From NCBI GenBank assembly GCA_900540365.1, contig UQFN01000005.1:21231-85230 (forward strand): DNA of 64,000 nt, written 5' to 3'. A model generated the notes under the pieces. The model was not told where the DNA came from and did not search any database. It saw nothing but the letters and a program-made list of their open reading frames with translations. Of this stretch, positions 388 to 37,986 are shown piece by piece. This DNA is from an uncultured Mollicutes bacterium (GTDB lineage Bacteria > Bacillota_I > Bacilli_A > RFN20 > CAG-826). The position numbers were made by a program, and so were the translations under genes. How positions within the stretch are numbered: the first letter of the stretch is position 1; each line of letters starts with the position of its first letter.

Positions 388-475
388 GTTAAATATTATA
401 GAATAATTAAATTCAATTTATAATAATATAGTTATATTCTTGTCTAATTAATGTTAAATAATTTATAAAAATTCT

Positions 476-505
476 AAAAAATACCTAAGTTTTAGATGTT
501 TTTTT
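476..505. repeat. Copy of dispersed ~28-nt intergenic motif (reverse orientation)
   Basis: aaaaaatacctaagttttagatgttttttt; overlaps the TAA of the 492..1274 gene. Confidence 0.45.
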
Positions 506-1274: not shown

Positions 1275-1353
1275 CTATTTATTTTCGTAATTTATATATT
1301 TTTTTGTCAATCAATTATTTTTTTAGATTATCAACTAAAACCATTCTTTTTGT

Positions 1354-1383
1354 AAAATACCTTGTAAAACTAAACTATTTTTT
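1354..1383. repeat. Copy of dispersed ~28-nt intergenic motif (forward orientation)
   Basis: aaaataccttgtaaaactaaactatttttt. Confidence 0.5.
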
Positions 1384-1444
1384 ATTATTTTAACTTATTT
1401 TTAATTACTATCTTTTTAAAAAAATTTAAACTTAGAGCGGTTTG

Positions 1445-1473
1445 TTGACAAAAAAATGCATGAATGATAATTT
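1445..1473 (+). promoter_or_regulatory. Candidate sigma-A-type promoter of the 1527-15117 operon
   Basis: TTGACA (1445-1450), a 17-nt spacer ending TGa (1465-1467), then TAATTT (1468-1473), about 55 nt upstream of ATG 1527. Pattern match only. Confidence 0.35.
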
Positions 1474-1526
1474 TATTAGTAGGAGGAAAGGGTATATATA
1501 ATAAGGATATATCTCATTTAATAATT

Positions 1527-2156: not shown

Positions 2157-2173
2157 ATAAATTTATTTTAACA

Positions 2174-7076: not shown

Positions 7077-7087
7077 AATATTTTAAT

Positions 7088-7786: not shown

Positions 7787-7788
7787 TT

Positions 7789-10254: not shown

Positions 10255-10985
10255 TAAATGAAAATAAAATGATTGAAGTTAAAAATTTAAATAAATCCTA
10301 TGGTAAACATCAAGTGCTCTTTGATGTTAATTTTGATATTTATGAAGGGGAGTTATTTGGCTTAATTGGTAAAAATGGAGCTGGAAAATCTACTACTATT
10401 GAATGTATTTTAGGAGCTAAAAAATTCGATAGTGGAGAAATTTTAGTTGATCATAAAAATATTAATAAAGATGCTTTAGAAATTAAAAAAATAATTGGTT
10501 ATGTTCCTAGTGAACCAACTTGTTATTTAGATATGACTGGTTATGATTACTTAAATTTTGTTGGAAGTTTATATCAAGTAAGTTTTAAAACTTTTATCGA
10601 TAATGTTGATTTTTTAGTTAAATTATTTGATTTTTTAGAAAAAGATTTATATCGACCAATTAGAGAATATTCTCATGGTATGCAACAAAAGATATGTTTA
10701 ATGGCTTCTTTAATTCATAATCCTAAAATTTGGATTTTAGATGAACCAACAGTTGGTCTAGATCCTGTTGCTGCTAATGAATTAACTAAATTAATAAAAG
10801 AATTTATTAAACATAATAAATCTTGTTTTATTGCTTCACATAATATTGAGATGATTGCTAAATTATGTGACCGAGTTGCAATTGTTAAAGATGGAGAAAT
10901 TAGTGAAATTATCGATTTAAAAAATAATCCAAATATGCGTAGTAAGATACCAAGTATTTTTATGAAAGTTTATAATTTATTATGA
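10251..10985 (+). CDS. ABC transporter ATP-binding protein (ABC-2 exporter type) with degenerate signature motif
   Basis: ATGA overlap with the C1 stop. Walker A is GKNGAGKST. The signature position reads YSHGMQQK instead of LSGGQ. Walker B is WILDEPTVGLD. Confidence 0.85.
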   Translation: MINENKMIEVKNLNKSYGKHQVLFDVNFDIYEGELFGLIGKNGAGKSTTIECILGAKKFDSGEILVDHKNINKDALEIKKIIGYVPSEPTCYLDMTGYDYLNFVGSLYQVSFKTFIDNVDFLVKLFDFLEKDLYRPIREYSHGMQQKICLMASLIHNPKIWILDEPTVGLDPVAANELTKLIKEFIKHNKSCFIASHNIEMIAKLCDRVAIVKDGEISEIIDLKNNPNMRSKIPSIFMKVYNLL

Positions 10986-12595: not shown

Positions 12596-15117
12596 AAACT
12601 AAAGCTATTATTTTTCTATTAATTTTACCCTTAGTTATTTCTATTTTAGCTTTTGTATCTTCGAGCTTTTTTATTCGCGGAGTAGAACAAGATATAACTG
12701 CTATTAGTTGGAATTATAAATCTAATGAAGGTTTTTTAATTAGTGAAGGTAAAGTTAAACTAGAAGCTAAACCAATTTATGATGAACGTTATCCTTTAAG
12801 TGAAGGTAATAATTTAGTTTGGACTTTAAATAATAATGATTATTGTAAATTAGAAATTATTAATGATGAAACTTACTTAGTTCCTTTTTCTCCAGGAAGT
12901 ACAATTGTTACTTGTCAAAATGAAAAGCAAACAATTACACAATCATTTACAGCAGTAATTATTGGTGATGAAGGAGCGATTATTCTTAATCCAATAATTC
13001 CTTTTTCAAAAAATAGTATTTCTTCAACTAATTATGTTGGTTTATATGAATCAACAACTAGTTATGATAATAATCAAATTGATACTACTTTAAAACTTGA
13101 AGTTGAAATTATTGGAGGAAGTTCTTCTATTGCAACTTTAAGTGTTGATCATAGTGACAATATTGAATTTAATGTTGATAAAAAAGAAATTACTTTCTTA
13201 AAAGAAGGCGAAGCTTATTTACGTTTATATCGCAGTTATTCTTCTAAAGGTGAAGCGTATCTTAACTTTGATATTGTTAAGGCAGTGAATATTTATAATT
13301 ATGAAGGATTAATAAATGTCACTAATAAAACTAATAAAAAGTATCCTGCAGTTTTAAGAGTTAATTTAGAATCCTTCGATAATACTTATATTGTAAATAA
13401 AGATAATACTTTAACAAAAAAATCAAATGATACTGAACTATTTGGTCAACTTGATGAAAATAATAAAGTAAAGTCTTTTATTGATGATCTTTATATTTTT
13501 GAAACTACCTATAATCATGATTTTTTAAATAGTTGGAATGAGTCAGTCAAAAATAATTTGATAGAAAATGCCTATGAAACACCAATTATTCGTTATGCTG
13601 GAGTACATATTCAATCAGATTTTTATGGAAATGGTTTTACAATTAATACTCATGAATTAGTATATCCAAGTTTAACCCAATCGATTAATGTCGATGGTAA
13701 TACTATTGTTGTTCCTTTATTAAGTGATGAAGATTTATATCGTGGTCCATTAGCTTTTGTGACAATGGGAGATCCCAATTATATTTTTGATCAAACAATT
13801 CAAAAGCCAATTTTTACTATATTTGGACAAGATAATAGTTCATTTTATATTAACGATGATAATGTTACTGTTGATAATGTTCATTTTAAAGGTTGTGATT
13901 TTGGTAACAACTTAACTAATTTACAATATACTGGTTCAACTCTTGATATTAATGCTAACAATGTTGTAATTCAAAATAGTATTTTAGAAAATAATCGTAA
14001 TATAATTCGTTCATATTCAAGTAAAAATTTATTAATTGATAATTGCTTATTAAGAAATTCAATGGAATTTCTATTTAGAAGTGGATCTAATGAATTTAAT
14101 AAAGTGAATTATGATGAAAATGTTCGTTATTTAGGAGAAAATAATGTTTCATATATTACTTCAAAAAGTAATTATTTAAGTAAACAAATTTTTACTGATA
14201 ATGGTCTAGATGATATTTCTAAAAGTTATCGAGCCGATTCATTATTAACTAATTCTGCTGTAGTTAATACTCAAGCTAATGAATTTTTAAATACTCCATT
14301 ACAAGGTTATACTAAAGAAGAGTTTATTATTGGACAACAAACTATTCGTGAAGCATTAACTAACCTTGAAGGAATTTATGGTGAAAATAATAAAAAAGTT
14401 TATGCAGGAAATACTATTATTAATGATACTTATTTCCAAAATAGTGGAATTTCTGCAATTTCGATGGATACTTTATATCAAGGTCCATTCTTAGAAACTA
14501 ATATTACTTCTTTATTTATATTTTTATTAGGAATTTATACAAGTTTCCTTCCTAAAAATTTAGCCTTAACTAGTTATCCAACATTATTAACTTTAAGTGG
14601 AGATATAAGATTTTATGATTGGAAAAATAAAAATAATTTATATTTTGAATCTTTAGTTGATGAAGATATTGCTGGTTTAATAATTGCTCATGGTGGATTA
14701 GGTTCAAGTTTTGAAGTTAATATTAGTGAAGATGATTATTTACCAATTAAAAAGATCTTGTTAGATAATTATTCAAGTGATGTTTTAAGTAATGATCAAT
14801 TAAACATTCCAATCTATTTCCAAGGCGGAGGATATAATGCTAGTGAAGTTATTATTGATGAAGAATTAAAATCTTACTTTAATTCAATACCTTACGATAT
14901 TGATCCATTTGTATATTCATTAGATTTAAAACAAACTCCATCAACTCATTTTATGAGTGATCCACAAGCTAAATATGAGGCTATGAAAATTGCAATGTTA
15001 AGAGCGTCTTCGAATTTTATAGGTTTATATTCATATAAATTATTAACTTTAAATAATGAAGTTTCTAAATGGATTGGGGAAACTCCTAATATTAATGATT
15101 TAATTTCTAGAGCTTAA
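12592..15117 (+). CDS. Large secreted/anchored protein with Ig-like segment and right-handed beta-helix-like repeats
   Basis: N-terminus is MKTKAIIFLLILPLVISILAFVSSSFFIRG. GSTIVTCQNEKQTITQSFTAVIIG looks like a Big_2 domain. NNVVIQNSILENNRNIIRSYSSKNLLIDNCLLRNS looks like parallel beta-helix rungs. Confidence 0.6.
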   Translation: MKTKAIIFLLILPLVISILAFVSSSFFIRGVEQDITAISWNYKSNEGFLISEGKVKLEAKPIYDERYPLSEGNNLVWTLNNNDYCKLEIINDETYLVPFSPGSTIVTCQNEKQTITQSFTAVIIGDEGAIILNPIIPFSKNSISSTNYVGLYESTTSYDNNQIDTTLKLEVEIIGGSSSIATLSVDHSDNIEFNVDKKEITFLKEGEAYLRLYRSYSSKGEAYLNFDIVKAVNIYNYEGLINVTNKTNKKYPAVLRVNLESFDNTYIVNKDNTLTKKSNDTELFGQLDENNKVKSFIDDLYIFETTYNHDFLNSWNESVKNNLIENAYETPIIRYAGVHIQSDFYGNGFTINTHELVYPSLTQSINVDGNTIVVPLLSDEDLYRGPLAFVTMGDPNYIFDQTIQKPIFTIFGQDNSSFYINDDNVTVDNVHFKGCDFGNNLTNLQYTGSTLDINANNVVIQNSILENNRNIIRSYSSKNLLIDNCLLRNSMEFLFRSGSNEFNKVNYDENVRYLGENNVSYITSKSNYLSKQIFTDNGLDDISKSYRADSLLTNSAVVNTQANEFLNTPLQGYTKEEFIIGQQTIREALTNLEGIYGENNKKVYAGNTIINDTYFQNSGISAISMDTLYQGPFLETNITSLFIFLLGIYTSFLPKNLALTSYPTLLTLSGDIRFYDWKNKNNLYFESLVDEDIAGLIIAHGGLGSSFEVNISEDDYLPIKKILLDNYSSDVLSNDQLNIPIYFQGGGYNASEVIIDEELKSYFNSIPYDIDPFVYSLDLKQTPSTHFMSDPQAKYEAMKIAMLRASSNFIGLYSYKLLTLNNEVSKWIGETPNINDLISRA

Positions 15118-15200: not shown

Positions 15201-15224
15201 AAAAGCAGCTTGTTAGCTGCTTTT
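15201..15224. terminator. Bidirectional rho-independent terminator between convergent genes
   Basis: aaaa GCAGCT tgtt AGCTGC tttt: a 6-bp GC-containing stem flanked by an A-run and a T-run. Confidence 0.7.
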
Positions 15225-16413
15225 AATATTTAAATATTTCAATTTCCATATCACTAGTTGGATAAGAACAACATGGATGGAAGAAATGATATTTTTTATC
15301 AGTCATACGTAATTTCTCGTACTTAGTTGCTACATAAGTTCCTTTAATAATTCGACTTCTACAAAAACCACATCCACCTAAATGACATTTACTTCTAATA
15401 GGAAGTCCGCTTCTTTCTAAAGCTGTTAAAATAGTTTCGTTTGCATTAGCTTTAATTTCATAAACTTCATGCTCACAATTAACTTTAATATTATAAATAC
15501 TACTATCACTAATATCTAAATTAGTAGCTGTTCTTTCAATACGAATAAATTTCTTTTCTAAGTTAAGTTTTGATAACTCTTTATCTAAAAATTCAATCAT
15601 CGCACTAGGTCCAGCAGCAAAAATAGAATATTGTTCATCTTTTGGAGCATATTTCTTAATTAGATTAACATCAATAAATCCATGTTCATAATTAGGATTA
15701 TTTTCTTCACTTAAAACATAAACTACTTTTACTTTATGATTAGTGTTTTCTTCAATTTCTTTAAATTCTTTTTCAAATATTTTATCTTTTAATGTTCTTA
15801 TACCAAAAAGAATAGTTAAATTAAAGTCTTCACTTTTTTCATTAATAGCTTTTGCCATTGATAAAAATGGAGTAATACCAGTTCCTCCAGCTAGAGCAAT
15901 AACATTTTTAGCATCTCTTAATTTGTTATAAGTTAAATTTCCACCGACTTCACTAGCAATTAATTTATCATTAACTTTAGCTTCATCCAATAAATAAGAT
16001 GATAGTAAACCATCACTTTTTCTTTTAATAGTTACTTTATAAATATTATTTAAAGCTTCTTTTGGTGAAGATGATAAGGAATAAGTTCTAGCAACCACAT
16101 TATTTTTAGTTGCTACATCTTTAAACATAATTGAAATATATGATCCTGCTTTAAATGGAGCAAGTTCTTTTGTTTCACTTTCTTTATCATTAGTTAAAAC
16201 AAAAGTTTTAGTATCATAATTTTCTTCGATAATTTCTTTTATTACTAAATGTTGTTTTTCAGGATGAAAAATACGTGCTAAATGGTTAACATAATATTCT
16301 TCTTTTAAAGGTTTAGCAGGAGTATTTTCAATTGCTTCTAATCGATCACGTTTAAGATTTTTAAACTTCAACATGTCGAAAATTCCAATTAAACCAACTT
16401 TTACTTTTAACAT
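15223..16413 (-). CDS. Ferredoxin-NAD(P) reductase-type flavoprotein with C-terminal 2Fe-2S domain
   Basis: RTYSLSSSP is the FAD RxYS motif. GGTGITPFLSM is the NAD(P) site. The C-terminal Cys cluster is CHLGGCGFCRSR. Confidence 0.8.
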   Translation of the reverse strand: MLKVKVGLIGIFDMLKFKNLKRDRLEAIENTPAKPLKEEYYVNHLARIFHPEKQHLVIKEIIEENYDTKTFVLTNDKESETKELAPFKAGSYISIMFKDVATKNNVVARTYSLSSSPKEALNNIYKVTIKRKSDGLLSSYLLDEAKVNDKLIASEVGGNLTYNKLRDAKNVIALAGGTGITPFLSMAKAINEKSEDFNLTILFGIRTLKDKIFEKEFKEIEENTNHKVKVVYVLSEENNPNYEHGFIDVNLIKKYAPKDEQYSIFAAGPSAMIEFLDKELSKLNLEKKFIRIERTATNLDISDSSIYNIKVNCEHEVYEIKANANETILTALERSGLPIRSKCHLGGCGFCRSRIIKGTYVATKYEKLRMTDKKYHFFHPCCSYPTSDMEIEIFKY

Positions 16414-16414
16414 C

Positions 16415-17947
16415 TTATTTATCCTCCTTCATATCACCTAAGGTAAGTTTAGCAGCTAAATCTCCACTTAAATATGAAGAATTATATCCACTACTTCTAA
16501 CTGCGTGACCACCACAGAATCTTAGTCCTTTTAAATCTTCCTCAGCATACATTGTAGTTAATCTAGCCATCATATTGTCTAAATCTTCTGTTAAATAACC
16601 ATAAATCGTTCCATCTGGAGCATCTGTATAGTGAGCATAAGTTAATGGAGTACCAACTTCAATTTCTTCAATATAATCATGAATATTTGTATTAGTAGCT
16701 TTTTCAAAAGTTTCGATAAATTGTTTTGCTAAGCGATCTTTTAAATCAAAATAATTTTCTTTAGTTAACGCTTTTTCAAAACAATCTCCAAAGTATAAAG
16801 ATGTAAAGTACATAATAGTTGTTCCTTTTGGTGAACAATTAGGAAGCGCATTATTTAATACAACAACTACTTGACCATGATTTGAAATATTTTTCATTGT
16901 TTCAAATTGTTTATTTGAATCTAAATAATCGTAAATAAAATATGAATAATCTTTAAGACCAAGTTCTTGAGGAGTTTTGTTTAATCCTAAGAAAATTGAA
17001 AATCCTCGACCAGCTAATTTATTAAAGTTGGCTTTCTTAACTTGCCAAAGCGGAACATCTTTTTTATCAACCATTTTTCCATAAACACTAACTGGCATTG
17101 CATTTGAAACTATATGTTTAGTTTTTATAATAGTTCCACTAGCTAATACTGCTCCACTAACTACACCGTTTTCAGTTAAAATTTTTACAACTTCATCGCC
17201 ATAAAAAATTTCTCCGCCATGTTTTCTAATTGCATCTTCTAAAGCTTGACTTATTCCATGACTTCTAGTAGTTGGAATTTGTGCTTTTAAACTAATGTAA
17301 AGATAAACCATTATGCAGTAATGAGTAAATCCTAAGTGTGCTGTTGGAGCACCTAAATATGACCAATAAGTTCCCAATATTTCTTGAGCTTTCTTAGGCA
17401 TCTTAATAGCTTTCAAAACTTTATCTGTTGAATAAGTCGCTGTACGCATAAAGTTAGGATATTTTTCCATCATAACTTTAGTATCAGGTTGACCACGCGA
17501 AAGATTTAAATATTTTAAGGCTTCTTGAATTTCAGCGCCTAATTTAAAAAACGTTGTGACACTTTTTTTACTTCCTGGAACATATTCTTCCATTTTGTTA
17601 ATAAAATTTTCAATTCCAAAAGGTAAAGTATAATCTTCTTTAGTAGATAAAGAAATTACTCTAAAAGCTTCAGGAACATCAACAAATTCAATATCTTTTA
17701 AAACATCAAAATCCTTGAATAATTCATATAAATTTCCATGTAAATCTTCGTGTCCGAAATCACATAATTCATGTAATGAGGCTTCAAATTCAAATCTTCC
17801 TCTTATAAACGAAGTGGCAAATCCTCCACCTAAAAGATGTCGTTCAACTAAAAGAACTTTCTTATTACTTTTTGCTAGTCTTAAAGCAGCAGCTAATCCA
17901 CCATTACCAGCACCAATAACAAGAGCATCGTAAGTTAATGTAGTCAT
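16415..17947 (-). CDS. NAD(P)/FAD-dependent oxidoreductase, phytoene-desaturase (CrtI/COG1233) superfamily
   Basis: Dinucleotide fold YDALVIGAGNGGLAAALRLAKSNKKVLLVERH. 510 aa. The stop is 1 nt from the ATG of the reductase gene. Confidence 0.75.
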   Translation of the reverse strand: MTTLTYDALVIGAGNGGLAAALRLAKSNKKVLLVERHLLGGGFATSFIRGRFEFEASLHELCDFGHEDLHGNLYELFKDFDVLKDIEFVDVPEAFRVISLSTKEDYTLPFGIENFINKMEEYVPGSKKSVTTFFKLGAEIQEALKYLNLSRGQPDTKVMMEKYPNFMRTATYSTDKVLKAIKMPKKAQEILGTYWSYLGAPTAHLGFTHYCIMVYLYISLKAQIPTTRSHGISQALEDAIRKHGGEIFYGDEVVKILTENGVVSGAVLASGTIIKTKHIVSNAMPVSVYGKMVDKKDVPLWQVKKANFNKLAGRGFSIFLGLNKTPQELGLKDYSYFIYDYLDSNKQFETMKNISNHGQVVVVLNNALPNCSPKGTTIMYFTSLYFGDCFEKALTKENYFDLKDRLAKQFIETFEKATNTNIHDYIEEIEVGTPLTYAHYTDAPDGTIYGYLTEDLDNMMARLTTMYAEEDLKGLRFCGGHAVRSSGYNSSYLSGDLAAKLTLGDMKEDK

Positions 17948-24569: not shown

Positions 24570-24651
24570 ATAAACTTCCTTTATATTATTATTACATAAG
24601 TTGATAAAATTTAAAATTGTTTAAAAATAAACAAAATCACTAGTTTTTATT

Positions 24652-24680
24652 AAAAACCCTTTTAAACCCAATTATTTTTT
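24652..24680. repeat. Copy of dispersed ~28-nt intergenic motif (forward orientation)
   Basis: aaaaacccttttaaacccaattatttttt. Confidence 0.45.
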
Positions 24681-24700
24681 AAAAAATAAACTATTTTTTG

Positions 24701-25094
24701 TTTTAAATAAAATCTTTTAATAAGCTTTTGAATTTCAAATAAAACTAAAGAAACTAAAGAAATTAGTAACACATATAAATAATTAATTGGTTCTAAATAA
24801 ACTAATTGAAATATATTCATAACTTTAGGAGTAAAAACAATAAAAGCAACGACCCCTTAAGCTCCAAACAAAACGATGTAAAGCCATTTATTATGATCTT
24901 TTGGAGAAAAATAGAAACAATGTTTGATCTTTGATTAAACGAATGAATGATTTGTGAAATAGATAATACTAAAAATGACATAGTCATTGCAGCTTGAGGA
25001 TCTTTTAAACCTAATATTCAATACATATAAATACTAAAAAAACTTAAAGCAATAAAAATTCCATGGATTATTACCCTAATAGCTAAACTATTTG
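24701..25094 (-). pseudogene. Remnant of the C-terminal membrane domain of a P-type cation ATPase
   Basis: Hand translation gives ..YMY*ILGLKDPQAAMTMSFLVLSISQIIHSFNQRSNIVSIFSPKDHNKWLYIVLFGA*GVVAFIVFTPKVMNIFQLVYLEPINYLYVLLISLVSLVLFEIQKLIKRFYLK. It has in-frame TGA and TAA codons, and no ATPase body lies upstream. Confidence 0.6.
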
Positions 25095-25389
25095 CTATTC
25101 ATGATAAAGTTTTGCTAAAGGCTCAGTTTTAGCATAATATTCATCACTAGTTATTTCTTCCTTAATTTTATTTAATCGATTAAGAATAATCTCTTTTTCA
25201 TAATTAACATATTCATCAAAACTATTAAAATCTGGATATTTTGCTAAACAACCAACATCTAACATATCATTAAAACTATATCCTTAATATGAATAATCTA
25301 GAGGAAATTTTGTATTAACAAAATCGACAAAATTTTCGTTGTCGCTTTTAAATACTAATACACTACAGTTTTTTTAAATGTTCTTTCAT
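25095..25389 (-). pseudogene. Degraded small ORF of unknown family
   Basis: The ATG 25389 frame stops after 8 codons. Adding one nt to the T7 run at 25369-25375 restores ..CSVLVFKSDNENFVDFVNTKFPLDYSY*GYSFNDMLDVGCLAKYPDF..LAKLYHE. One in-frame TAA remains even then. Confidence 0.4.
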
Positions 25390-25401
25390 AATAAATTCTT
25401 T

Positions 25402-25429
25402 AAAAATAATTGAGTTTTAGAGATTTTTT
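25402..25429. repeat. Copy of dispersed ~28-nt intergenic motif (reverse orientation)
   Basis: aaaaataattgagttttagagatttttt. Confidence 0.55.
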
Positions 25430-25518
25430 CTTAAATTGATAGCTTTTTTACTTCCGTTCTTTATCTAAAATAGCATATTGATATGTATTTTCATATATAG
25501 GAGAGCCATCTTCTCTAT

Positions 25519-26127
25519 TTAAAAACTTTCTAAGTACTTTTTCTTTTGATCTTCCCAATATTTTTTATCTTCAAGAGTTATTTTTCTAATTACTTTGCAA
25601 GGATTTCCACACGCAATTACATTATCTTCAATATCATGAGTAACTACTGATCCAGATCCAATTACAACATTATTTCCAATTTTAACTCCAGCATTGATAG
25701 TCACATTCCCACCAATCCAAACATCATTGCCGATAACTACTTTATAACCATATTCTAATAATTCATTACGAATATCTTTATCTATTGGATGTCCAGCTGT
25801 AAATATATTAACTCTTGGCCCTAACATTACATTATTTCCAATAATAATTTCATTTACATCTAAAAATATACAATCCATATTTGCATAAAAATTATCACCT
25901 ACAGAAATATTGCAACCATAATCACATCTAAATGGATAATTAATAAATGCATTTGAACCAATGTGTTTAAACAATTTTCTTAACAAATCTTGTTTTGAAA
26001 CTGTGTCAGTGTTACTTTCATCATTAAAAAGTTTTAAAATACTTTTCTTATATTCATTTAGTTTACTTAACTCTTCATCGTTTGCTTTATAAAGCATTCC
26101 AGATAACATTCTTTCTTTTTGTGTCAT
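25519..26127 (-). CDS. maa: Maltose/galactoside O-acetyltransferase (left-handed beta-helix, hexapeptide repeats)
   Basis: Colinear with E. coli Maa: ERMLSGMLYKANDEEL.., FRCDYGCNISVGDNFYANMDC, GNDVWIGGNVTINAGVKIGNNVVIGSGSVV. Confidence 0.85.
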   Translation of the reverse strand: MTQKERMLSGMLYKANDEELSKLNEYKKSILKLFNDESNTDTVSKQDLLRKLFKHIGSNAFINYPFRCDYGCNISVGDNFYANMDCIFLDVNEIIIGNNVMLGPRVNIFTAGHPIDKDIRNELLEYGYKVVIGNDVWIGGNVTINAGVKIGNNVVIGSGSVVTHDIEDNVIACGNPCKVIRKITLEDKKYWEDQKKKYLESF

Positions 26128-26172
26128 AAAAAACCTCTAACATAGTATACACAAAAAGTAAAAATATTTAAA

Positions 26173-26797
26173 TTAAGGTTGCATAATACCAGCAAATACT
26201 AACCATGCAAGTAATGTTTTTGCTACTAAACTTAAAATGATATATACTCTTTCGCCGTATAAATAGTCTTTCCACTTTCCAACTTTTTTATATTGTAAGA
26301 CCATATTTATTGGGAATAAATTAAATAAGACAAAATAAACTGCTGCTATAACAAAAACAAACCAAGGAACAAGAGATAAATCTGCACAAGAAACTAAGTT
26401 AATTAAAAAAAAATCCAAGAACCAATCTCAGCAATTGAGCCAAAAATAAAAGGTAACCAATTGACTTTTTCTTTGCTTGATTTATTTTTTCCATCAATAA
26501 CCCAAATAAATTCATTGAAGCATTTAATAAGAAAATTAAAATTAAAGTACATATATCATAAATGCCAAATAATATAGCAATTAAAACCATCATTAAAGAA
26601 GAAGATAAAGCATATTCATACCATCTAAAAACATTAATATTATTTTTTAAACCTAAATTATAACAGTCATTAACTTTTTTAGGTAAACTTACTAAATGAT
26701 GAAAAATTGTTGATATAAATAAAAATAACAACACACAAATTCAAAAAGGTAAACTAAAAAAGTACTTTAGAACTTGATACTAAAAATCCCATATCAT
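26173..26797 (-). pseudogene. Heliorhodopsin remnant (5'-truncated, two frameshifts)
   Basis: Track ORFs 26399..26734 and 26173..26418, plus a short third-frame stretch (VNWLPFIFGSIAEIGSWIFF), join into a helices B-G sequence. Matching motifs: NVFRWYEYALSSSLMMVLIA, NASMNLFGLLMEK, LQYKKVGKWKDYLYGERVYIILSLVAKTLLAW. The Schiff-base Lys in LVAK is kept. The comparison is from my memory of heliorhodopsin 48C12. Confidence 0.75.
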
Positions 26798-26857
26798 TTA
26801 AAGTTAAATTTATAAACAGTTTTTATATTTTTTTATTAAAAAAATCTTTTTTTAAGT

Positions 26858-26885: not shown

Positions 26886-27776
26886 CTATATTTTGTATTG
26901 ATGATACATTGATAAAATATTATCAACAATTTCTTGAGAAATAAAATCTTTCATAAAAACAATATTAGTTTCTCTAATCATATTCATATTTTCAATTGGT
27001 AAAATAGCTAATGAATGGTCTTTTAATTCACTAAAACAAACACTTCTAGGAAGTACGGATACTCCTGCTCCTTTTCTAATTAAATCTTTGATTGTAGCAA
27101 TATTATCAATCTCTAAAATAACATTAAATTCATCAATTGACATATTCATATTCATAAGTTGAGAAACAAATAAATTTCTAGTTCCACTTTGTTTTGAACG
27201 TAAAATCATCTTCTCTTTTTTTAAATCGTTAATATTAACAATCTTTTGCTTAGCTAAAGGATTATCTAAACTCATAACTGCTACTAAATAATCAGTATCA
27301 AGCAAGACACTAGAATATTTTTTCTCAGTGACTTTACCTTCAACAAAGGCTAAGTCAATCTCATAAGTTGATAATTTATCATAAAGATTTTTTATAGTAT
27401 CAGAAACAATTTTTATTTTAGTACCCTTATTATTTGCACAATAATTTGCTAAAACTTCAGCAACAATATTGCTCTCTGAAGTATGTGTAATTCCAATAAT
27501 TAAGCTTTTGGCATGCATCTTTTCATCTTTTAATTTAGACGCTAATTCATGATATAAAGAGACAATTCTTCTAGCATATTTAAGTAAAATCTCTCCTTCA
27601 GGTGTAATTTTTAAATCATTACCAACTCTATTAAATATTTTAATATTTAATTCAGTTTCAAGTTGTTTTATATGTTGACTAACTGCAGGTTGAGTCAAAT
27701 TTAATTTTTTAGCAGCTAGAGTGAAGTTTTTTAATTCACTTGCTGCTAATAAAGAAACTAGTTTTACATCTTCCAT
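26886..27776 (-). CDS. LysR-family transcriptional regulator
   Basis: wHTH FTLAAKKLNLTQPAVSQHIKQLE followed by a substrate-binding domain of about 200 aa. Divergent from the antiporter gene. Confidence 0.9.
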   Translation of the reverse strand: MEDVKLVSLLAASELKNFTLAAKKLNLTQPAVSQHIKQLETELNIKIFNRVGNDLKITPEGEILLKYARRIVSLYHELASKLKDEKMHAKSLIIGITHTSESNIVAEVLANYCANNKGTKIKIVSDTIKNLYDKLSTYEIDLAFVEGKVTEKKYSSVLLDTDYLVAVMSLDNPLAKQKIVNINDLKKEKMILRSKQSGTRNLFVSQLMNMNMSIDEFNVILEIDNIATIKDLIRKGAGVSVLPRSVCFSELKDHSLAILPIENMNMIRETNIVFMKDFISQEIVDNILSMYHQYKI

Positions 27777-29711: not shown

Positions 29712-31742
29712 TTAATAAGAATTCCCAATAAATTCTAAAATATATTCAACACTAATTTTTTCTTTATTAGATTTAAATATTGGTAAATATGTATAATATT
29801 CACTAGTTATCTTATCAATTAAGTTAGTAGTTATATTAAGTGAAAAATCTAAATAAGAATTTTCGTTATTAATATCTTTTTCTAAATCTACAAGTTTTTC
29901 TTCTTGAACAAATAACATTGGAATATTATAGCCTTCAACTACATAATTTTCATTAGTTGCATCATAATAAGTAAAATATCTTGTTCTTAATTCAATATCA
30001 TATCTTCTTGAAAGCATTTTAGTAGATAAACCACCATATTTCTTAGCGACAAAGACATCAGTGGATCCATTAACATATATGGAATAGGAATTCATACTTA
30101 AGTCTTCTTCTTCACTACTGCCTTTATGTATTGCTTTAATTGAATTAATACCACTAGTGTCGCTTAAATTAAACCATAATGTATTATATTCAGTTTCTGT
30201 TCCTAAAGCTGAAAGATGTTCATTAACTTCATATCCAATTAAATGTCCTGTGTTAGTATTATATACTTCGCAAATTACTCCATCAAAACCAGGTAATGCT
30301 CCGGCTTTATTTCCGATTACAGTTGTATAGTCTTCATTAATGTAAAATTCAGCAGCACTCGATGTAGAAATACTACCATCAATACCTAAATACTCATATA
30401 TGCTTCCAGATATACTTGCATCTTCATTAACAATCATATTAAAGTAAGCTCTTCTTACTCCACCATAACGTATAGCAAACGTATAATTATCACCATTAAT
30501 TACATATTTTAAAGCATTAGCATCATTTAGTTGAATTCTTCCAACTCGTTCACCAGTAGTTACATTTAATTCTAACCCAATTTGGACTTTAGTTTCACCG
30601 ATTAAAGGAATTGTAGTATCAAATTCAAGTACATAAATCATTAGTGTTCCATCAAAAGAAATATCTACTTTATATACTCCTACTTCAAATGAATATTCTG
30701 CAGTTGAACTAGGATTTTTATCTAAATAATTATTAAAGGCTGTAATGGATGCTGAAGAAACTAAATCAATAACACTTAAAACATTAAAGAAAATTGTGGA
30801 TTGATTCAAATTATCAACAACCATTTTCCATTGTTCACCATAACCATAATCCAAAATTAAGTTTGTATTTACAAAATTAGTATAATCAAAATCTAATTGT
30901 CCTTGATTAATTAGATTTGCTTCATATGAAGGTAATAATGATTGTGGAATCTTACTAAGTGGATTATATGAATATCCTTCTAATAAAGACTTCAAATATT
31001 GACCAATATTAACTTTTTCGTTATATGATGCATAGAAAGTAACATCACCAACTAATTTATATGGCCAAGTAACTGCAGTTGTTAAATCTTCATCGATACA
31101 CCAACCAACAAAACGATAGTTTTCAAGAATAGGTTTATCCTCAGGTTCATTAATTAATGTTCCATAATCTGCAGTTATACTATTAACTTTTGAACCATCA
31201 AATGTTTCAAAAGTAATTGTATATTTATTTATTGTCTCCTTAAATTTTGCAACATATTCAGTATTTTCTTTAACAGGAAGAATTTCTTTATCCCATCCAT
31301 CAAACGAGTATGAATATTCGACACTTTTTGGTTTTAAAGGAGTTTCTCCATCATATTTTGGTAAAGTATTATAAGGGACATTATTATCGATTTCTAAAAC
31401 GCTACCATCATAGTTTTTCCATACAACTTGATAAGTATTAATAACTTCATTAAAAGTAGCCGTATAAGTTGCATCGCTATAAGCTTTTATAACCGATGGA
31501 GTCCATCCACTAAAAGTATAAGAATATTGATCATTTCCTTCTTTACAAGGTTCTTTCCCATTATAAACTGGCAATTCTCCTTCTAATACTTCATCAACTA
31601 ACAATATATTACCATCATAGTTTTTCCACGTAATAGTATATTCTTTTGGTTCAGTTGTATCAGTTGAATTATTATTACAACTAGCTAATACAAATAAACT
31701 TAATAAAGAAAAACTAACAGCACTAATAAATTTTATATTCAT
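29712..31742 (-). CDS. Surface lipoprotein with three tandem Listeria-Bacteroides (Flg_new-like) repeats and a large C-terminal domain
   Basis: Lipobox LFVLASCNN. Three ~70-aa repeats: YTITWKNYDG..YTFSGW..YTATF, YQVVWKNYDG..YSFDGW..YVAKF, YTITFETFDG..FVGW..TFYASY. Confidence 0.75.
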   Translation of the reverse strand: MNIKFISAVSFSLLSLFVLASCNNNSTDTTEPKEYTITWKNYDGNILLVDEVLEGELPVYNGKEPCKEGNDQYSYTFSGWTPSVIKAYSDATYTATFNEVINTYQVVWKNYDGSVLEIDNNVPYNTLPKYDGETPLKPKSVEYSYSFDGWDKEILPVKENTEYVAKFKETINKYTITFETFDGSKVNSITADYGTLINEPEDKPILENYRFVGWCIDEDLTTAVTWPYKLVGDVTFYASYNEKVNIGQYLKSLLEGYSYNPLSKIPQSLLPSYEANLINQGQLDFDYTNFVNTNLILDYGYGEQWKMVVDNLNQSTIFFNVLSVIDLVSSASITAFNNYLDKNPSSTAEYSFEVGVYKVDISFDGTLMIYVLEFDTTIPLIGETKVQIGLELNVTTGERVGRIQLNDANALKYVINGDNYTFAIRYGGVRRAYFNMIVNEDASISGSIYEYLGIDGSISTSSAAEFYINEDYTTVIGNKAGALPGFDGVICEVYNTNTGHLIGYEVNEHLSALGTETEYNTLWFNLSDTSGINSIKAIHKGSSEEEDLSMNSYSIYVNGSTDVFVAKKYGGLSTKMLSRRYDIELRTRYFTYYDATNENYVVEGYNIPMLFVQEEKLVDLEKDINNENSYLDFSLNITTNLIDKITSEYYTYLPIFKSNKEKISVEYILEFIGNSY

Positions 31743-31753
31743 CTTTTTCCTCC

Positions 31754-32617
31754 TTATATTTCAGTTTTTGCATCATTAGTGTATGACCAATAAATAGAAA
31801 ATGGAAATACAAAAAAACTCATAACAGCACAAATTCCAGTTGCTAAAATAATCGCTCCTAGCATTAGTACAAACCCAATTATTGCAAAAACAATTTTAAT
31901 TAAAATAAGAGATTTAATTCCATCAAAAGTGAAAGAAAAAATTATTCCAGGAAATTTAATTGCTCCCCAAGAAGCTACTGTCAACCGCATATCACCGATA
32001 AAATTGTTACGCATAAATACACAAAAAACAAATGTAAAAGTAAGTATCATTGCTGGGGCAAGAAATGAATAATATATCAAAGCATTACTTTGATCTCCTA
32101 TTGTAGCAAGTAAAATAAAAATAATACCAACTACAGCAGATAAAATTCCTCCAAAAACATATCCACGTAAACGAAAGGAGTTATTTTTATCACTTCGAAC
32201 TTGTTGCTGACGTATTTTCTCTTTTCTTAAACATTCATTACAAACATAATAAAGTTCGCGTCCTCCTCTAGACTTAGCAATAGAACGCTGAACTCCTTCC
32301 CCTGGATGAATATATTTATGACATATTTTACATTCCCCGATTACTGGCAATGATTTATTTACTTCATTGTTTGATTGTTTTACGTTTTCTTCATCCTTTT
32401 TTGGTTCTTCTTTTTCCTTTAATTCTAATAAATCGTCCACTGATACTTTATATAAAGCTGCTAAGTCCTTTATAGTATCAATATTTGGTTCAACCGCATC
32501 TAATTCCCAACGAGACACGGCTTGTGGAGTTACATTTAATTTTTCTGCAACTTCATTTTGTGTATAACCACACTTAATTCTATATTCTTTAAGATTCTTT
32601 CCTAAATTCACAAGCAA
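31754..32617 (-). CDS. Membrane-bound XRE-family HTH regulator with zinc ribbon
   Basis: HTH is YTQNEVAEKLNVTPQAVSRWE. Zinc ribbon is CKICHK..x..CNEC. There are 4 C-terminal TM helices. The true start is probably GTG 32611, 7 nt after GGAGGG. Confidence 0.75.
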   Translation of the reverse strand: MLVNLGKNLKEYRIKCGYTQNEVAEKLNVTPQAVSRWELDAVEPNIDTIKDLAALYKVSVDDLLELKEKEEPKKDEENVKQSNNEVNKSLPVIGECKICHKYIHPGEGVQRSIAKSRGGRELYYVCNECLRKEKIRQQQVRSDKNNSFRLRGYVFGGILSAVVGIIFILLATIGDQSNALIYYSFLAPAMILTFTFVFCVFMRNNFIGDMRLTVASWGAIKFPGIIFSFTFDGIKSLILIKIVFAIIGFVLMLGAIILATGICAVMSFFVFPFSIYWSYTNDAKTEI

Positions 32618-32936: not shown

Positions 32937-35510
32937 TTAAGATCCTGTTTTATCAAAGTATAAAATATAGTTTTTCATTACTCTTAAATTCAAAACTAAA
33001 TTTCCTGTATTATCAAAATATCCAATTAAAGCATCAGTAACAAAATCTCTAATTAATAAATTTTGTTTGGTATATCCATTTGTATTAGAGTTAATAAAAC
33101 TTTCAACTGCTTCTTGGAATGTAATTTGAGTTGAATTAAAACTAATATCACAGGTATCGCTACGTTTCATATTAACTCCAAGATAATACTTCTTTCTCCA
33201 TAATAAATAATCAAAATCAGTTCCGTCAGCATTTTTATGGATAGCAAGTCCAGTATTTGTATCAATGCTTACTTTATTTTCAAAAAGTTTAATGAAAATA
33301 TTAGTATGACGATATGTATATACATTAAATTGATCGCTATCTTTATTATATTCAATTAAAATATCATAAATACCTCGATCATTTTCATAATCATTTAAAC
33401 TTAAAGCATTTTCTTTTACATTTGTACTAGCAATTGTAATTTGCTTTGCATTAAACCATAAACTAGCATTAGTAAATACATCTTCATCATTAAATTTAAA
33501 TTGATTGTTTGCATATGTTGGATTAAAAATTAGTGCTTCATTATTATTTAATGGATTTAAATTATATAATTCACCATCGACATTATAATATTCATTATTA
33601 AATCGAATTTGCATTAATAAATTAGTGCTAATCTCTGTTAAATCAACATTTTGTGCTAAATAAATATAACTATTGTTTTCTGTTAATTCACTAGTTGAAT
33701 CTACTACATAAGCTCCACTTGAATTTAATGTTGCTTTATATAACTTAGCATTTAAATTATAAAATTTTGGAGCATTAACTTGTTTGTTTAAATCTGAATC
33801 GAAAGTTTTATCATCTATATAAGAGCTATTTAATTCCTTATAAAATGAAGCTTCAGCTATTTTTTCTACTAGTAATATGTATGGACGATTAGTATATATA
33901 TCACTAATTATTATATTATCTTTAAATAAATATTCTAAAACTCCTCCTCCTTTATTAGTATCTTTGCTAATATATGATAAATTTTTATTATAAATTTGTT
34001 TAAAGACAGTTAAATTGCTTGTAACATTATCGGCAATAGTAGATATGTTATTAAATCCTGCTGTGGAACTACTTGCTGTTGTGTTTCTTCCAACTACCAA
34101 ATAAAAATTATAAAGCCCAAGACCATAGTTATTTTTAATATATGTTATAATGCTTGAACCAGTTATGGAAGTATTTGAACCATAAAATGCTGCCCACGGT
34201 TGACCTCCCCAATGTCCAGCACTCTCTGCAGGATGTATTGCTATTTCTAAATCGGTTATATTTTCATTTATGTTAATGTTTGAAACATAGCCAATGTTTG
34301 TATTATTTATTCCATTAATAGGTGTACCTGCTTCAGAACCTTGAAAATATAACATTGGATATCTTGTTGAGTTTCCGCTTTTATCTTTAATATCCATTCT
34401 TAAAGCATCTCTTCCACCTTCAGAAATTATATCTTTATAACCTTTGGAATTTGAAAAAACTGGGAATAGTCTAATTACATTATCTTTATCAGCAAAGCCT
34501 GATAAAGCTTTATTTATATCAAAAAATTGATTAATGTCTTTACTTCTAAATACGGAAATTTCAATACTATCATCACCAACTTTGCAAGGATAAATTGGAT
34601 TGTCATTTCCATCAAAATCAACATAAGTCCACATTGCAAAATTTAATTCGTACCAACCTTCTTGATCGCCCATTGAAGTCCATGGGGTCATTGTAAGCTT
34701 AGAAAAATCACCTTGAGAAATAGATTCAAAAACCTCTATTTTTTGAGGTAAGACTCTTCCTTCATCATAATTTAAATTTGGCCAAAAACCAAATCGATCA
34801 TTTTTAAAATGCCTTCTATTATTATATTGACTATTATTAAAGTTAATATGATTAAATTTACCACTATCAAATCCATTTAACTGATTTTGATCTATATAAT
34901 AATCATCCCATGAAGTATTTGTAGGAATTACTCCTTTTCCATTAGAGTCGTCTTTTTCACCAAAATCGCTACGAGCATTATGACCACCATTTAATCCTGA
35001 TTCTCCGATTCCATTAATTTCTAAATCATAGACAATTTGGTAACCATAAACTTCAGCTTTGTTATACTCCATTACACCTAAGCCTTTTTGTGCGACTATT
35101 CTTTTAGAATTGTCTAAATATTCGTTATTATTATTAACATAATCACGATATGTTTCTTTGCTAGATTGTTTTAAGGTTTGCTTATAAGAAATATTTCCAG
35201 AACTATCTTCAATAGCTTCAATATAACCAAAAGCATCTTCTGGTTTGATAGTACTTCCATTTAAATAATCTTGATAAATCTCTAAATATAACGTACTTGG
35301 AAATAAATATATAGTGTAGTCTTTTCCAACATAATCTTCTCTACCAAATACATAATTTTCTTCGATATTATCAACTCTAATTTGATCTTCAATTAATTGA
35401 CTAGATTTAACTTCATCACTAAAAATAAAATATGCAAAAGCACTACTTGTAGCAATTGCTACAATTCCAATTAAACTTAAAAGAAATGTTTTAAATTTAA
35501 ATCTAACCAT
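32937..35510 (-). CDS. Cassette-2 giant protein C2 (about 857 aa) with TasA-style signal peptide
   Basis: ATG 35510 follows GAGGGG and gives MVRFKFKTFLLSLIGIVAIATSSAFAYFIFSDE (compare camelysin TFAYFSD). It overlaps the B2 stop by 8 nt. Confidence 0.65.
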   Translation of the reverse strand: MVRFKFKTFLLSLIGIVAIATSSAFAYFIFSDEVKSSQLIEDQIRVDNIEENYVFGREDYVGKDYTIYLFPSTLYLEIYQDYLNGSTIKPEDAFGYIEAIEDSSGNISYKQTLKQSSKETYRDYVNNNNEYLDNSKRIVAQKGLGVMEYNKAEVYGYQIVYDLEINGIGESGLNGGHNARSDFGEKDDSNGKGVIPTNTSWDDYYIDQNQLNGFDSGKFNHINFNNSQYNNRRHFKNDRFGFWPNLNYDEGRVLPQKIEVFESISQGDFSKLTMTPWTSMGDQEGWYELNFAMWTYVDFDGNDNPIYPCKVGDDSIEISVFRSKDINQFFDINKALSGFADKDNVIRLFPVFSNSKGYKDIISEGGRDALRMDIKDKSGNSTRYPMLYFQGSEAGTPINGINNTNIGYVSNININENITDLEIAIHPAESAGHWGGQPWAAFYGSNTSITGSSIITYIKNNYGLGLYNFYLVVGRNTTASSSTAGFNNISTIADNVTSNLTVFKQIYNKNLSYISKDTNKGGGVLEYLFKDNIIISDIYTNRPYILLVEKIAEASFYKELNSSYIDDKTFDSDLNKQVNAPKFYNLNAKLYKATLNSSGAYVVDSTSELTENNSYIYLAQNVDLTEISTNLLMQIRFNNEYYNVDGELYNLNPLNNNEALIFNPTYANNQFKFNDEDVFTNASLWFNAKQITIASTNVKENALSLNDYENDRGIYDILIEYNKDSDQFNVYTYRHTNIFIKLFENKVSIDTNTGLAIHKNADGTDFDYLLWRKKYYLGVNMKRSDTCDISFNSTQITFQEAVESFINSNTNGYTKQNLLIRDFVTDALIGYFDNTGNLVLNLRVMKNYILYFDKTGS

Positions 35511-36246
35511 TTGTCCCCTCAAATCTAGCTGTAAATTCTATATCAATAGTCCAATATTTACCATATTTTGTGAAATCTTGATACAAAGTAGTATATTTAG
35601 TTAATGTATTAGGTTTTACCTTTTCACTAGCATATGCAAAAATATCACCTAAATTAATTGTTATAACATATTCTTGAATTTTTAATCCTTCATACCCAGT
35701 TGCATTATCGACAAATGGATCGCTAACAGTATAAGGATAATAATCTAATAAATTTACAAAATTATTATTTGCATATAAATTAGATGAGATTGTAACATAT
35801 TTTGATAATGGTACTGCATTTTGATCAGTTGAAGTATCAGTAAGAATAGATATTTTTGCTCCTAAAACAAATCTAATATCACTAGGTAAAGTAAAATCAT
35901 TCACTTCACGGTGAAATATGACCTTAATTTCATCGTTTTTAACTAATTCATATTTATTAGTAACATTACTATAAGTACTTTTATAAAATTCTAAGCCTTC
36001 ATTTAAATCGGTTGAGGAATTTCCTTCTTCAAATAACATAAAAGTAGGAAACACTTGATTATCATGGGCATTTGCAAAATGTCCTAAGTTAGCTTTTGAT
36101 GATATATTAATTGGTATTCCAACTTCTTGAGATAAATCTCCAGCTTCACTACTATAAAAAACCCACACTCCAAATCCACTACCAACAAATAAAAAAGTAG
36201 TTAAAAAAGGAAGAACAGTTACTAATAATTTATTTTTAAACCACAT
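35503..36246 (-). CDS. Cassette-2 protein B2 with TasA-style signal peptide
   Basis: N-terminus is MWFKNKLLVTVLPFLTTFLFVGSGFGVWVFYSS. 247 aa. It overlaps the sipW-2 stop by 11 nt. Confidence 0.6.
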   Translation of the reverse strand: MWFKNKLLVTVLPFLTTFLFVGSGFGVWVFYSSEAGDLSQEVGIPINISSKANLGHFANAHDNQVFPTFMLFEEGNSSTDLNEGLEFYKSTYSNVTNKYELVKNDEIKVIFHREVNDFTLPSDIRFVLGAKISILTDTSTDQNAVPLSKYVTISSNLYANNNFVNLLDYYPYTVSDPFVDNATGYEGLKIQEYVITINLGDIFAYASEKVKPNTLTKYTTLYQDFTKYGKYWTIDIEFTARFEGTNG

Positions 36247-37270
36247 TATTAGTATCTTCCTTTAGTTGAAAACTAATATTATAGTCTTCATCTATTTTCT
36301 TTGAAAGTTCTAAAATCTTATTATCATAAGTTTTTTCAATTAAACCTTCAGCAACGTTATATGTAATTAAAAATAAGAAACTAGCTGCAAGAGCAACAAG
36401 TCCTATATTTGATTGCAAATAAATAAGTGTGACACCTAAGCCATAATTTTGAAAACCATTATATTTACCAACTACTTTATCAAAAGTTAATGTTAATTCT
36501 TCTGCTGAAGAAGTATCATTAGCATCTCCTCTTAAAGTATAATAAGTAACATTAGTTTCTTCATTTTGATATATTCTTATAACGCGGTGAACGATAATAC
36601 TTCCACTTTCACTTTTATAAGCCAATATATCATATAATTTTATATCGTTTTCACTATAAATTTTATCGATTCCAATTAAAGAATATTGTTCAATTTGATT
36701 AGTTAAATTATGTTCTTCAATATAATTATTTTCATTATTAACTGTTTCCATTGATCCTGTACGAATAGTTAATAATGTAGTGTCACCAAAAAACAATTGT
36801 TCTCCACCAATTTTAAAACCTAGTGCAAAACCAAAAATTATTAGTAATGCACAATAAAGAATACCAAATAATGTGTTCATTATAATTTGATATTTCTTGT
36901 TTCTTTTCTTGTCTATTAATATTGATTCGTAAACACCTATTGGTTCATCTACTTTAGCATTTTTAATTTTCTTTTTTAAATCTCTTCTTAAAAAAGTTTT
37001 AATATGTGGTTCGTTTTGAACTAAATAATAGTTCAAAACGCTTACTTCCACATCTTTATTTTTTTCTTCTATTTTAGGTTTTTCTAAAACATAACGATAT
37101 TTTCTTTTTAAAGAAGATTCAAGTTTATCATCTTCATGACCTAATTTAATATGTCTAATTTTATAATGACCATATAGTCCGAATAAAATACTAAATACAA
37201 TTGCGAATCCGATGATTACACACATTGAGACAATAAAAGCTATAAAAGATAGTCTTTCTTGTCCGTTCAT
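36236..37270 (-). CDS. sipW: Signal peptidase I, SipW / ER-archaeal type, enlarged (344 aa)
   Basis: Catalytic boxes are IRTGSMET, IVHRVIRI and LRGDAN. It has a ~135-aa N-terminal extension with two TM helices and a charged loop, plus a C-terminal TM and tail. Confidence 0.8.
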   Translation of the reverse strand: MNGQERLSFIAFIVSMCVIIGFAIVFSILFGLYGHYKIRHIKLGHEDDKLESSLKRKYRYVLEKPKIEEKNKDVEVSVLNYYLVQNEPHIKTFLRRDLKKKIKNAKVDEPIGVYESILIDKKRNKKYQIIMNTLFGILYCALLIIFGFALGFKIGGEQLFFGDTTLLTIRTGSMETVNNENNYIEEHNLTNQIEQYSLIGIDKIYSENDIKLYDILAYKSESGSIIVHRVIRIYQNEETNVTYYTLRGDANDTSSAEELTLTFDKVVGKYNGFQNYGLGVTLIYLQSNIGLVALAASFLFLITYNVAEGLIEKTYDNKILELSKKIDEDYNISFQLKEDTNNVV

Positions 37271-37301
37271 ATAAAAAGTAATATTTAAAAATAATTAATT
37301 A

Positions 37302-37928
37302 CTAGGCACCAACTTCGACAACTACTGCCGACCATTCAAAAGTAATTGAGGCCTTTGCTAAATTACTTTTCATTGTCCCATAATCAATTGAATTTCCAGG
37401 TTTTTTGCCTTCTATATACTCTAAGAATGTACATACATCTCCTGACATTAATGAAATAGTATCAGTTAGTCCTGTATTTGAAGTAACATCTTGCGTTAAT
37501 GTATGAACAGTTGAACCAGGTGTATAATCTGATAATCCTGTTACTTTAACATAATCTAATAAATTTGCAGTGAATGTGATAGTTCTAGTAACTTCAACTT
37601 TCATTCCAGCAGAAGTTAAATTCTCATAAGCTCCGTCTTTAAATGTAAATTTAGCACCAACGCTAGCTGCATCAAAACTAATTCCTTTCTTAACATCAGT
37701 TCTATTTTGAAATCCGCCTTGATCAAGCGTAAGTGTTGTAGCTTTTGTTTCATTTAATGTTAAAGTACCCACAGCATTATCAACCATATCTGAAACGATG
37801 ACATTAACATTTTGTTCTGCTTCCTTAATATTATTTTCGCTAAAATACCAAGCTGAAAAACCACTACCAACAAGTGCACTAACGGCTACTGCTGGTAAAA
37901 CTAACGCCAATAATTTTCTATTTAGCAT
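37302..37928 (-). CDS. Cassette-2 protein A2 with TasA-style signal peptide
   Basis: RBS AGGGGGA lies 8 nt before ATG 37928 and gives MLNRKLLALVLPAVAVSALVGSGFSAWYFSENN. The track start at 37970 lies inside the promoter. Confidence 0.65.
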   Translation of the reverse strand: MLNRKLLALVLPAVAVSALVGSGFSAWYFSENNIKEAEQNVNVIVSDMVDNAVGTLTLNETKATTLTLDQGGFQNRTDVKKGISFDAASVGAKFTFKDGAYENLTSAGMKVEVTRTITFTANLLDYVKVTGLSDYTPGSTVHTLTQDVTSNTGLTDTISLMSGDVCTFLEYIEGKKPGNSIDYGTMKSNLAKASITFEWSAVVVEVGA

Positions 37929-37958
37929 AAAAAAAATCCCCCTAAACTTTGTGCTTAG

Positions 37959-37986
37959 ATAATAACACATTTTGTGTTATTGTCAA
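37959..37986 (-). promoter_or_regulatory. Promoter of cassette 2 with an operator-like palindrome between -35 and -10
   Basis: The minus strand reads TTGACA-ATAACACAAAATGTGT-TATTAT (extended TGt-TATTAT). ATAACACA-aaa-TGTGTTAT (37962-37980) is a perfect 8-bp inverted repeat filling the spacer. Confidence 0.5.

Follow-up and report, generated by a model that had tools for sequence, protein, structure and literature searches.

A decayed heliorhodopsin gene in a probably gut-dwelling Candidatus Onthovivens species

Results

Structure of the locus

The DNA analyzed here is a stretch of 64,000 nucleotides, called the window throughout. At 26173–26808 its minus strand carries the remnant of a heliorhodopsin (HeR) gene, enclosed by an intact LysR-family regulator gene and an intact gene of a maltose/galactoside O-acetyltransferase-like protein (Mac). 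Between the LysR stop at 26886 and the acetyltransferase start at 26127 no long open reading frame (ORF) exists on the minus strand, only three short overlapping ones, and ORFs of 111 and 81 aa persist in the remnant. The anatomy given below was derived from comparison with an intact relative (contig L001) and with conspecific alleles; the 5' part of the 13-sequence alignment sets intergenic DNA against helix A, and calls before codon ~60 were redone by hand.

Features of the locus, all on the minus strand (basis in brackets):
26886–27776: LysR-family regulator gene, intact, directly upstream of the remnant
26173–26808: whole HeR remnant, distal A–B loop to helix G and original TAA stop at 26173–26175 (PF18761, blastn, 11 population alleles)
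26793–26808: deletion junction, lone remaining copy of the direct repeat TTTAACTTTAAATGAT (comparison with L010)
26756–26761: insertion of one T, T6 versus T5 in intact genes and in L010 and L008, codon ~65 (alignment)
26741–26743: nonsense TGA for Gly71 (GGA), PFG motif, start of helix B (alignment)
26477–26740: frame-B segment, helices B–D, ICVLLFLFISTIFHHLVS...NASMNLFGLLMEKINQ (111-aa ORF, Pfam E=4.1e-32, profile positions 62–153)
26475–26476: −1 frameshift, one G of CAAGGC gone, leaving CAAGC, codon 160 (alignment; same in L003)
26414–26474: frame-A segment, KEKVNWLPFIFGSIAEIGSWI (Pfam profile positions 138–166)
26405–26413: −1 frameshift in a T9 run (A9 on the plus strand), codon 182, other alleles reading ATTGTTATTTTA (alignment)
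26176–26404: frame-C segment, helices E–G with the Schiff-base Lys, LSLVAK (Pfam E=1.2e-31, profile positions 170–242; PDB alignments)
25883–26355: recombination patch, over the 3' third of the remnant, across the spacer and ~245 nt into Mac (comparison with L001)
25519–26127: Mac gene, intact, directly downstream of the remnant, its place after HeR being the same in L001

Family membership of the remnant

Three minus-strand frames, from 26173 to about 26745, were joined at two frame changes to give 189 aa, which match the Pfam family PF18761 with E=1.6e-76 and 257.3 bits (cut-off 26.7 bits) over profile positions 59–242 of 242, each of the three frame fragments aligning to its own successive portion of the profile. 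The preliminary description of this DNA had recognized the gene by heliorhodopsin hallmark peptides and had recommended such a profile search; all peptides that it quoted were found in the frames. The best PDB matches of the joined sequence were 6is6 of a Thermoplasmatales archaeon (TaHeR; E=1.8e-48) and 6su3 of 48C12 (E=1.7e-43). In these alignments the Schiff-base Lys of helix G (LSLVAK), described beforehand as kept in LVAK, falls on the same motif in 48C12 and TaHeR, while the Glu of RWYEY at the counterion position in helix C and the His of helix B are aligned with their equivalents in 6is6 and 6su3. In 48C12 numbering, we take the lysine to be K241 and the counterion glutamate to be E107. 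Judged by these comparisons, the HeR match in the window is real and lies far above chance.

The window copy is thus like the heliorhodopsins 6is6 and 48C12 over helices B–G, including the Schiff-base Lys, the counterion Glu and the helix-B His, but differs from 48C12 in the loss of helix A and hence of the helix-A His (His23 in 48C12). Compared with functional heliorhodopsins it has no start codon and bears three frameshifts and one nonsense codon, which make a seven-helix protein impossible. A complete seven-helix ORF with a start codon is missing, profile positions 1–58 being gone. An upstream start restoring a full protein, a possibility raised beforehand, is absent from the window, and tblastn with the intact relative found neither helix A nor another HeR piece nor a second HeR copy elsewhere in the 64 kb; a divergent second copy may lie elsewhere in the genome. 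Based on its sequence, the window copy is a member of the heliorhodopsin family that would no longer be a functional one.

Lesions of the window copy

Blastn of window positions 26783–25522 against the intact L001 gene gave 89% identity, and the distal half of the A–B loop (LNDMGFLVSSSKVLFSLPF) is readable up to 26808. The remnant had previously been delimited at 26173–26797, of which the lower end is correct while the true upper reach is 26808; helix A is absent as reported, whereas the A–B loop, believed to be lost with it, survives in its distal half.

A total of 190 nt has been lost at the 5' end, comprising the ribosome-binding site, the start codon, helix A and the proximal A–B loop. Contig L010 of the same species has the TTTAACTTTAAATGAT motif twice, at 10970–10984 (one T shorter) and 11160–11175, 190 nt apart, the first copy preceding the Shine-Dalgarno sequence, within the spacer, and the second within codons of the A–B loop (…FLTLNDM…). 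When one repeat copy and the spacer are subtracted from L010, the reconstruction equals the window sequence. The repeats were found by string search, the automated repeat finder being blind to the L010 pair with its 1-nt indel between copies.

Further downstream, the additional T at codon ~65, which makes an apparent stop after KVLF, is common to nine of 11 distinct population alleles, and the TGA at Gly71 occurs only in the window's contig (L004 being the same record). The codon-160 lesion recurs in L003, an independent assembly from a different sequencing run. Of the two frame corrections proposed earlier, the one at A9 26405–26413 was confirmed; the other, assigned to T5 26466–26470, corresponds to the G lost beside 26476, about 6–10 nt away. 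Two frameshifts had thus been seen, and the T inserted at 26756–26761 and the Gly71 nonsense codon had been overlooked.

Alleles of the same species

Exact-protein look-ups of the neighboring Mac and LysR yielded, among the matches listed, 11 further contigs of the species, originating from SRR35937387, ERR10610485, ERZ16268129/055/149/097, DRR588499, SRR26665618, ERR11532960 and ERZ24773424. The sampled contigs bear the handles L003 and L005–L013, in addition to the window's own record (L002/L004; ULOB01051052.1 of GCA_900522185.1). In all sampled contigs LysR is followed by a remnant of 750–944 nt and then by Mac. A broken HeR was present in 12 of 12 contigs of the species (at least six sequencing projects, among the matches listed from 24 of 49 index blocks), with lesion sets that differ yet overlap; a rare strain may still have an intact allele. 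L003 shows frameshifts at codons 65, 94, 160 and 183 and a TGA at codon 198, its codon-160 lesion being common to the window and its codon-94 lesion to L007, L009 and L011; L005 and L013 display the shift at 65, a TAA at 139 and a −2 shift at 161; L008 has −1 shifts at codons 77, 136 and 200 and is free of the codon-65 insertion; L009 possesses a TGA at 146 and a −1 shift at 226. Such mosaic sharing points to recombination among dead alleles. The 190-nt deletion has an identical junction in 11 contigs. Only L010 keeps the 5' end, with an ATT start codon, a frameshifted helix A and stops at ~codon 35 and Trp251, and a gene was called for its ORF of 196 aa. No lesion is present in every allele.

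Since the sequences come from metagenome assembly, and two frameshifts of the window copy are in homopolymers, one of 9 nt and one a T6 run, it might be supposed that the gene is intact in the organism, that the frameshifts are homopolymer or assembly errors and that the missing N-terminus is a mis-assembly. This would require the same kind of failure in a further 11 assemblies (six projects or more), all of them broken by shared and private lesions that include stop substitutions, with the same deletion junction recurring in 11 contigs and the codon-160 frameshift, which is outside any long homopolymer, repeated in L003. It would also have to spare the flanking genes, which in the same contigs contain no stop codons and a single gapped alignment cell in total (g613). 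An artefact is effectively refuted and retains next to no probability; the disabling lesions are real and not sequencing errors.

Selection on the remnant and its neighbors

Variants seen in a single allele among the 11 distinct alleles were counted over codons 66–259 in the frame of the intact relative. The HeR remnant had 16 synonymous, 38 nonsynonymous and five stop variants (omega 0.68; 0.101 variants per site), as against 154 synonymous, 65 nonsynonymous and no stop variants in eight flanking genes pooled from the same contigs (omega 0.11; 0.030 variants per site). The two omega values differ significantly (Fisher p=3e-9). The density at synonymous sites of the flanks (154/1468 = 0.105) equals the overall density of the remnant (0.101), from which it follows that the remnant drifts at the neutral rate over the whole sampled genealogy. 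Clade-invariant residues are struck as well: W111L, E113K at the counterion position, G151W/E, P168S, A245T in LVAK, and W198* and W251*. Omega of the remnant is below 1, for which the small sample, the crude site counting in a genome of 25% GC and variants older than the inactivation are plausible reasons. A pairwise dN/dS among alleles (ratio 0.29) was not used, since the 3' part falls into two deeply diverged haplotypes that confound it.

For the intact orthologues L094 and L014, dN was 0.027 and dS 0.66 (dN/dS about 0.04), and the intact members of the clade are under strong purifying selection. Relative to its neighbors and to intact orthologues, the remnant is under relaxed selection.

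These values also bear on the question of whether the locus still makes a working six-helix or small C-terminal product by internal starts, by programmed frameshifting or by phase variation at homopolymers. In Mollicutes-like bacteria homopolymer tracts serve phase variation, and ORFs are left, of 111 and 81 aa in the window and the 196 aa called as a gene in L010. The omega of 0.68 and the hits on invariant residues argue against a shortened product, as do an ORF layout that varies by strain with stops and shifts at different sites, the deletion of the ribosome-binding site and start codon, and several nonsense substitutions, which slippage is unable to reverse. We consider such a product very improbable.

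Synteny with an intact sister lineage and a recombination patch

The preliminary description had advised a search for intact orthologues in relatives, and these were found. The closest intact protein, P0001 (260 aa, contig L001), shares 86% of its amino acids with the relic, and no intact protein of higher identity occurred among the best 120 matches listed from 5.8 billion sequences. The gene order in L001 is HeR, Mac, a TIR-containing three-gene island, the MAG1210-family gene, LemA, a 142-aa gene and 2-Hacid_dh, and its nucleotide identity to the downstream flank of the window is 78–89% (blastn). On the upstream side the two differ, with 170-aa and 205-aa genes in L001 and LysR, a Na/H exchanger and other genes in the window. 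Truncation of HeR by a LysR block moving in from upstream was ruled out, as L010 has LysR upstream yet retains the 5' end. The conserved adjacency of HeR and Mac and the downstream synteny with L001 argue for decay in situ of a vertically inherited gene.

Within 25883–26355 the window has five mismatches to L001 in 473 nt (99% identity), whereas the flanks of this patch reach only 82–90%, and most other population alleles are 65–85% identical to the window within the patch. The patch of L003 has a different left boundary (~26235). By recombination, DNA of the lineage with the intact gene has thus replaced the 3' third of the relic together with the spacer and the beginning of Mac, and it is because of this tract that the helix F–G part including LVAK looks pristine.

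A patch of ~470 nt that is 99% identical to the L001 lineage, in a locus among strain-variable islands and in a gene whose context varies in more distant relatives, could alternatively mean that the fragment reached this species in a broken state, through horizontal transfer or recombination, and at no time worked there. Yet the patch spans the remnant only in part and is missing from most strains, and outside of it the remnant is 82–89% identical to L001, as are the neighboring vertically inherited genes. Together with the HeR–Mac adjacency kept with L001 and the full-length gene footprint of L010, which includes the Shine-Dalgarno sequence, this leaves acquisition of a dead fragment with only a very small probability.

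Host organism

The window has a GC content of 24.6% and is densely coding under table 11; tRNA or Rfam matches were not found in the 64 kb. According to NCBI labels, the 90%-identity clusters of the flanking proteins AsnA and CorA include members from Candidatus Onthovivens sp., a taxon that NCBI places in Bacillota/Bacilli, and three other flanking-protein clusters queried contained no named organism among the members read. Onthovivens was named from chicken feces and has been reported from pig fecal MAGs and the gut of hunter-gatherer humans. A neighbor of 613 aa is a MAG1210-family protein, a type typical of mycoplasmas. The low GC content, this neighbor and the Onthovivens labels fit the earlier characterization of the organism as an AT-rich, Mollicutes-like and probably host-associated lineage. 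Host association, apt as a description, is drawn from the genus label and the literature. A host in a monoderm (Bacillota) lineage agrees with the restriction of the heliorhodopsin family to monoderms, from which alone it has been reported (PMC8612252).

The codon CGG is nearly absent, with two occurrences in 18,807 codons of the window and one in 4,673 of L001. In the window, CGG at 61427–61429 (minus strand) is codon 417 of a GH36 alpha-galactosidase gene (60494–62677) and falls on the invariant Trp of the GH36 enzyme motif KFGLW(F/L/V)EPEM; the other, at 31985–31987 (minus strand), is codon 211 of an HTH gene (31754–32617). The only CGG of L001 is codon 198 of its HeR gene (5153–5935), a clade-invariant Trp (PWFVF). 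Reassignment of CGG from Arg to Trp has been predicted in some Onthovivens genomes (PMC13092985), and the codons at invariant Trp positions fit this prediction.

Discussion

Origin and decay of the relic

The relic is very probably a non-functional pseudogene of a vertically inherited HeR in a gut-dwelling Candidatus Onthovivens species. The view that the gene is in the course of loss was borne out by differently broken copies in 12 of 12 contigs, neutral drift and an intact syntenic gene in the sister lineage. Selection on the photoreceptor would have been relaxed before the sampled strains split, because no lesion is common to all alleles; the cause may have been life in a dark and anoxic gut, or else that a partner or the supply of retinal was lost. 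In most strains a deletion of 190 nt between direct repeats of 15/16 nt, presumably through slipped replication or illegitimate recombination between the copies, has removed helix A and half of the A–B loop along with the ribosome-binding site and the start codon, the state before the deletion persisting in L010, which is itself disabled in other ways. In the window copy, a tract of ~470 nt from the intact-gene lineage has covered the 3' third. As far as its reading frames tell, the relic should yield no functional protein.

In its multiple lesions, repeat deletion, neutrality and strain polymorphism, the relic is like ordinary pseudogenes of host-restricted, genome-reducing lineages, from which it is mechanistically no different; pseudogenes commonly decay by frameshifts and by deletions between direct repeats. 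What is unusual is that the photoreceptor family occurs in a gut anaerobe and that part of the copy was patched by recombination with a lineage whose gene is working. The locus illustrates the decay of a pseudogene at population level: DNA between direct repeats was deleted, recombination shuffled the lesions among alleles, and a functional allele contributed a conversion patch.

Retention and repeated loss in the wider clade

Besides P0001, intact HeRs of the clade (P0002, P0003, P0005–P0007, P0011) are 75–82% identical to the relic and occur in varied gene contexts. Over the 75–86% amino acid identity spanned by all of these proteins, the sister-lineage and clade genes are uninterrupted at 255–260 aa and under strong purifying selection, unlike the relic. 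Three further lineages have N-terminal lesions of their own: a helix-A frameshift in the P0004 lineage (L095–L097, L016), a helix-A frameshift in the P0009 lineage (L101), and, in the P0010 lineage, frameshifts in L098–L100 and a CAA to TAA change at codon ~105 in L015, a relative from another project. These lesions identify P0004 (227 aa), P0009 (234 aa) and P0010 (212 aa) as truncations by the gene caller and not as short isoforms. The losses in the P0004 and P0009 lineages are probable, with support that possibly comes from a single project.

A clade in or near this genus, which is known from gut samples, displays three states of HeR, strongly constrained and intact, freshly broken by a single frameshift, and thoroughly decayed. 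One reading, which we put forward tentatively and regard as rather unlikely, is that HeR is actively maintained in several species of a strictly gut-associated, anaerobic, Mollicutes-like clade and is being lost independently in at least four others, namely the species of the window and the lineages of P0004, P0009 and P0010, which would mean a role that does not hinge on the illumination of the habitat. If so, the role could be light-independent or confined to a phase of transmission outside the host with exposure to light and oxygen, each loss would mark a lineage that is done with this role or with a still-unknown partner, and the clade would be a natural co-loss experiment for heliorhodopsin function. 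The gradient of states could be used to look for co-retained and co-lost genes and to relate retention to a light-exposed stage outside the host. Proposed roles of heliorhodopsins include regulation of glutamine synthetase (PMC9529153), help to photolyase (PMC9769723) and modulation of ABC transporters (PMC11109279); our literature search found no paper that deals with heliorhodopsins of gut bacteria or with pseudogenization of the family there. The expectation that the relic would bear on what heliorhodopsins do was reasonable, but its bearing is modest and derives from how the gene is retained and repeatedly lost across the clade, the window copy by itself being one more pseudogene and an ordinary loss.

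Other features of the window

Matches to the families blh, crtB and crtY were absent among the window ORFs scanned. At 15223–17947 (minus strand), 8 kb from the relic, lies a gene pair for a CrtI/carotenoid-isomerase-family FAD oxidoreductase (510 aa; distant CrtI family, 103 bits against a cut-off of 587 bits) and a ferredoxin-reductase-type protein (396 aa; Fer2, FAD_binding_6 and NAD_binding_1), and the same pair is found directly beside HeR in the P0004 lineage (L095 8745–11455, L096 6667–9365). A link of this pair to carotenoid or retinoid chemistry would be speculative, and a function in retinal supply is not claimed, the scores being far under the family cut-offs.

Strain-variable islands occur on both sides of the locus, at 29712–32617 and 24570–25518. 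Depending on the strain, the interval between the 861-aa and 132-aa genes holds an HTH and Flg_new pair (as in the window), a TIR_2 trio or nothing. The trio consists of TIR_2 (409 aa), a 274-aa and a 719-aa protein (3666–7882 in L005–L007), is located in L001 at 6914–11126 between Mac and the MAG1210-family gene, and looks like a mobile defense-type cassette. Many long ORFs (up to 841 aa) in 1–15117 and 35503–37970 have no Pfam match at E<=1e-5, among them a cluster at 7783–15117 (plus strand) that contains an ABC ATPase, and a 247/344/861-aa set shared with L001.

A second relic is present beside the locus, about 1.2 kb from the HeR relic: the C terminus of a P-type cation ATPase at 24662–24987 (minus strand). 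It scores 17.6 bits against Cation_ATPase_C in the window and 70.7 bits in L010, where a 112-aa ORF at the same place covers profile positions 77–175 of 175; of a large gene only the last ~100 aa are left, and these are further frameshifted in the window.
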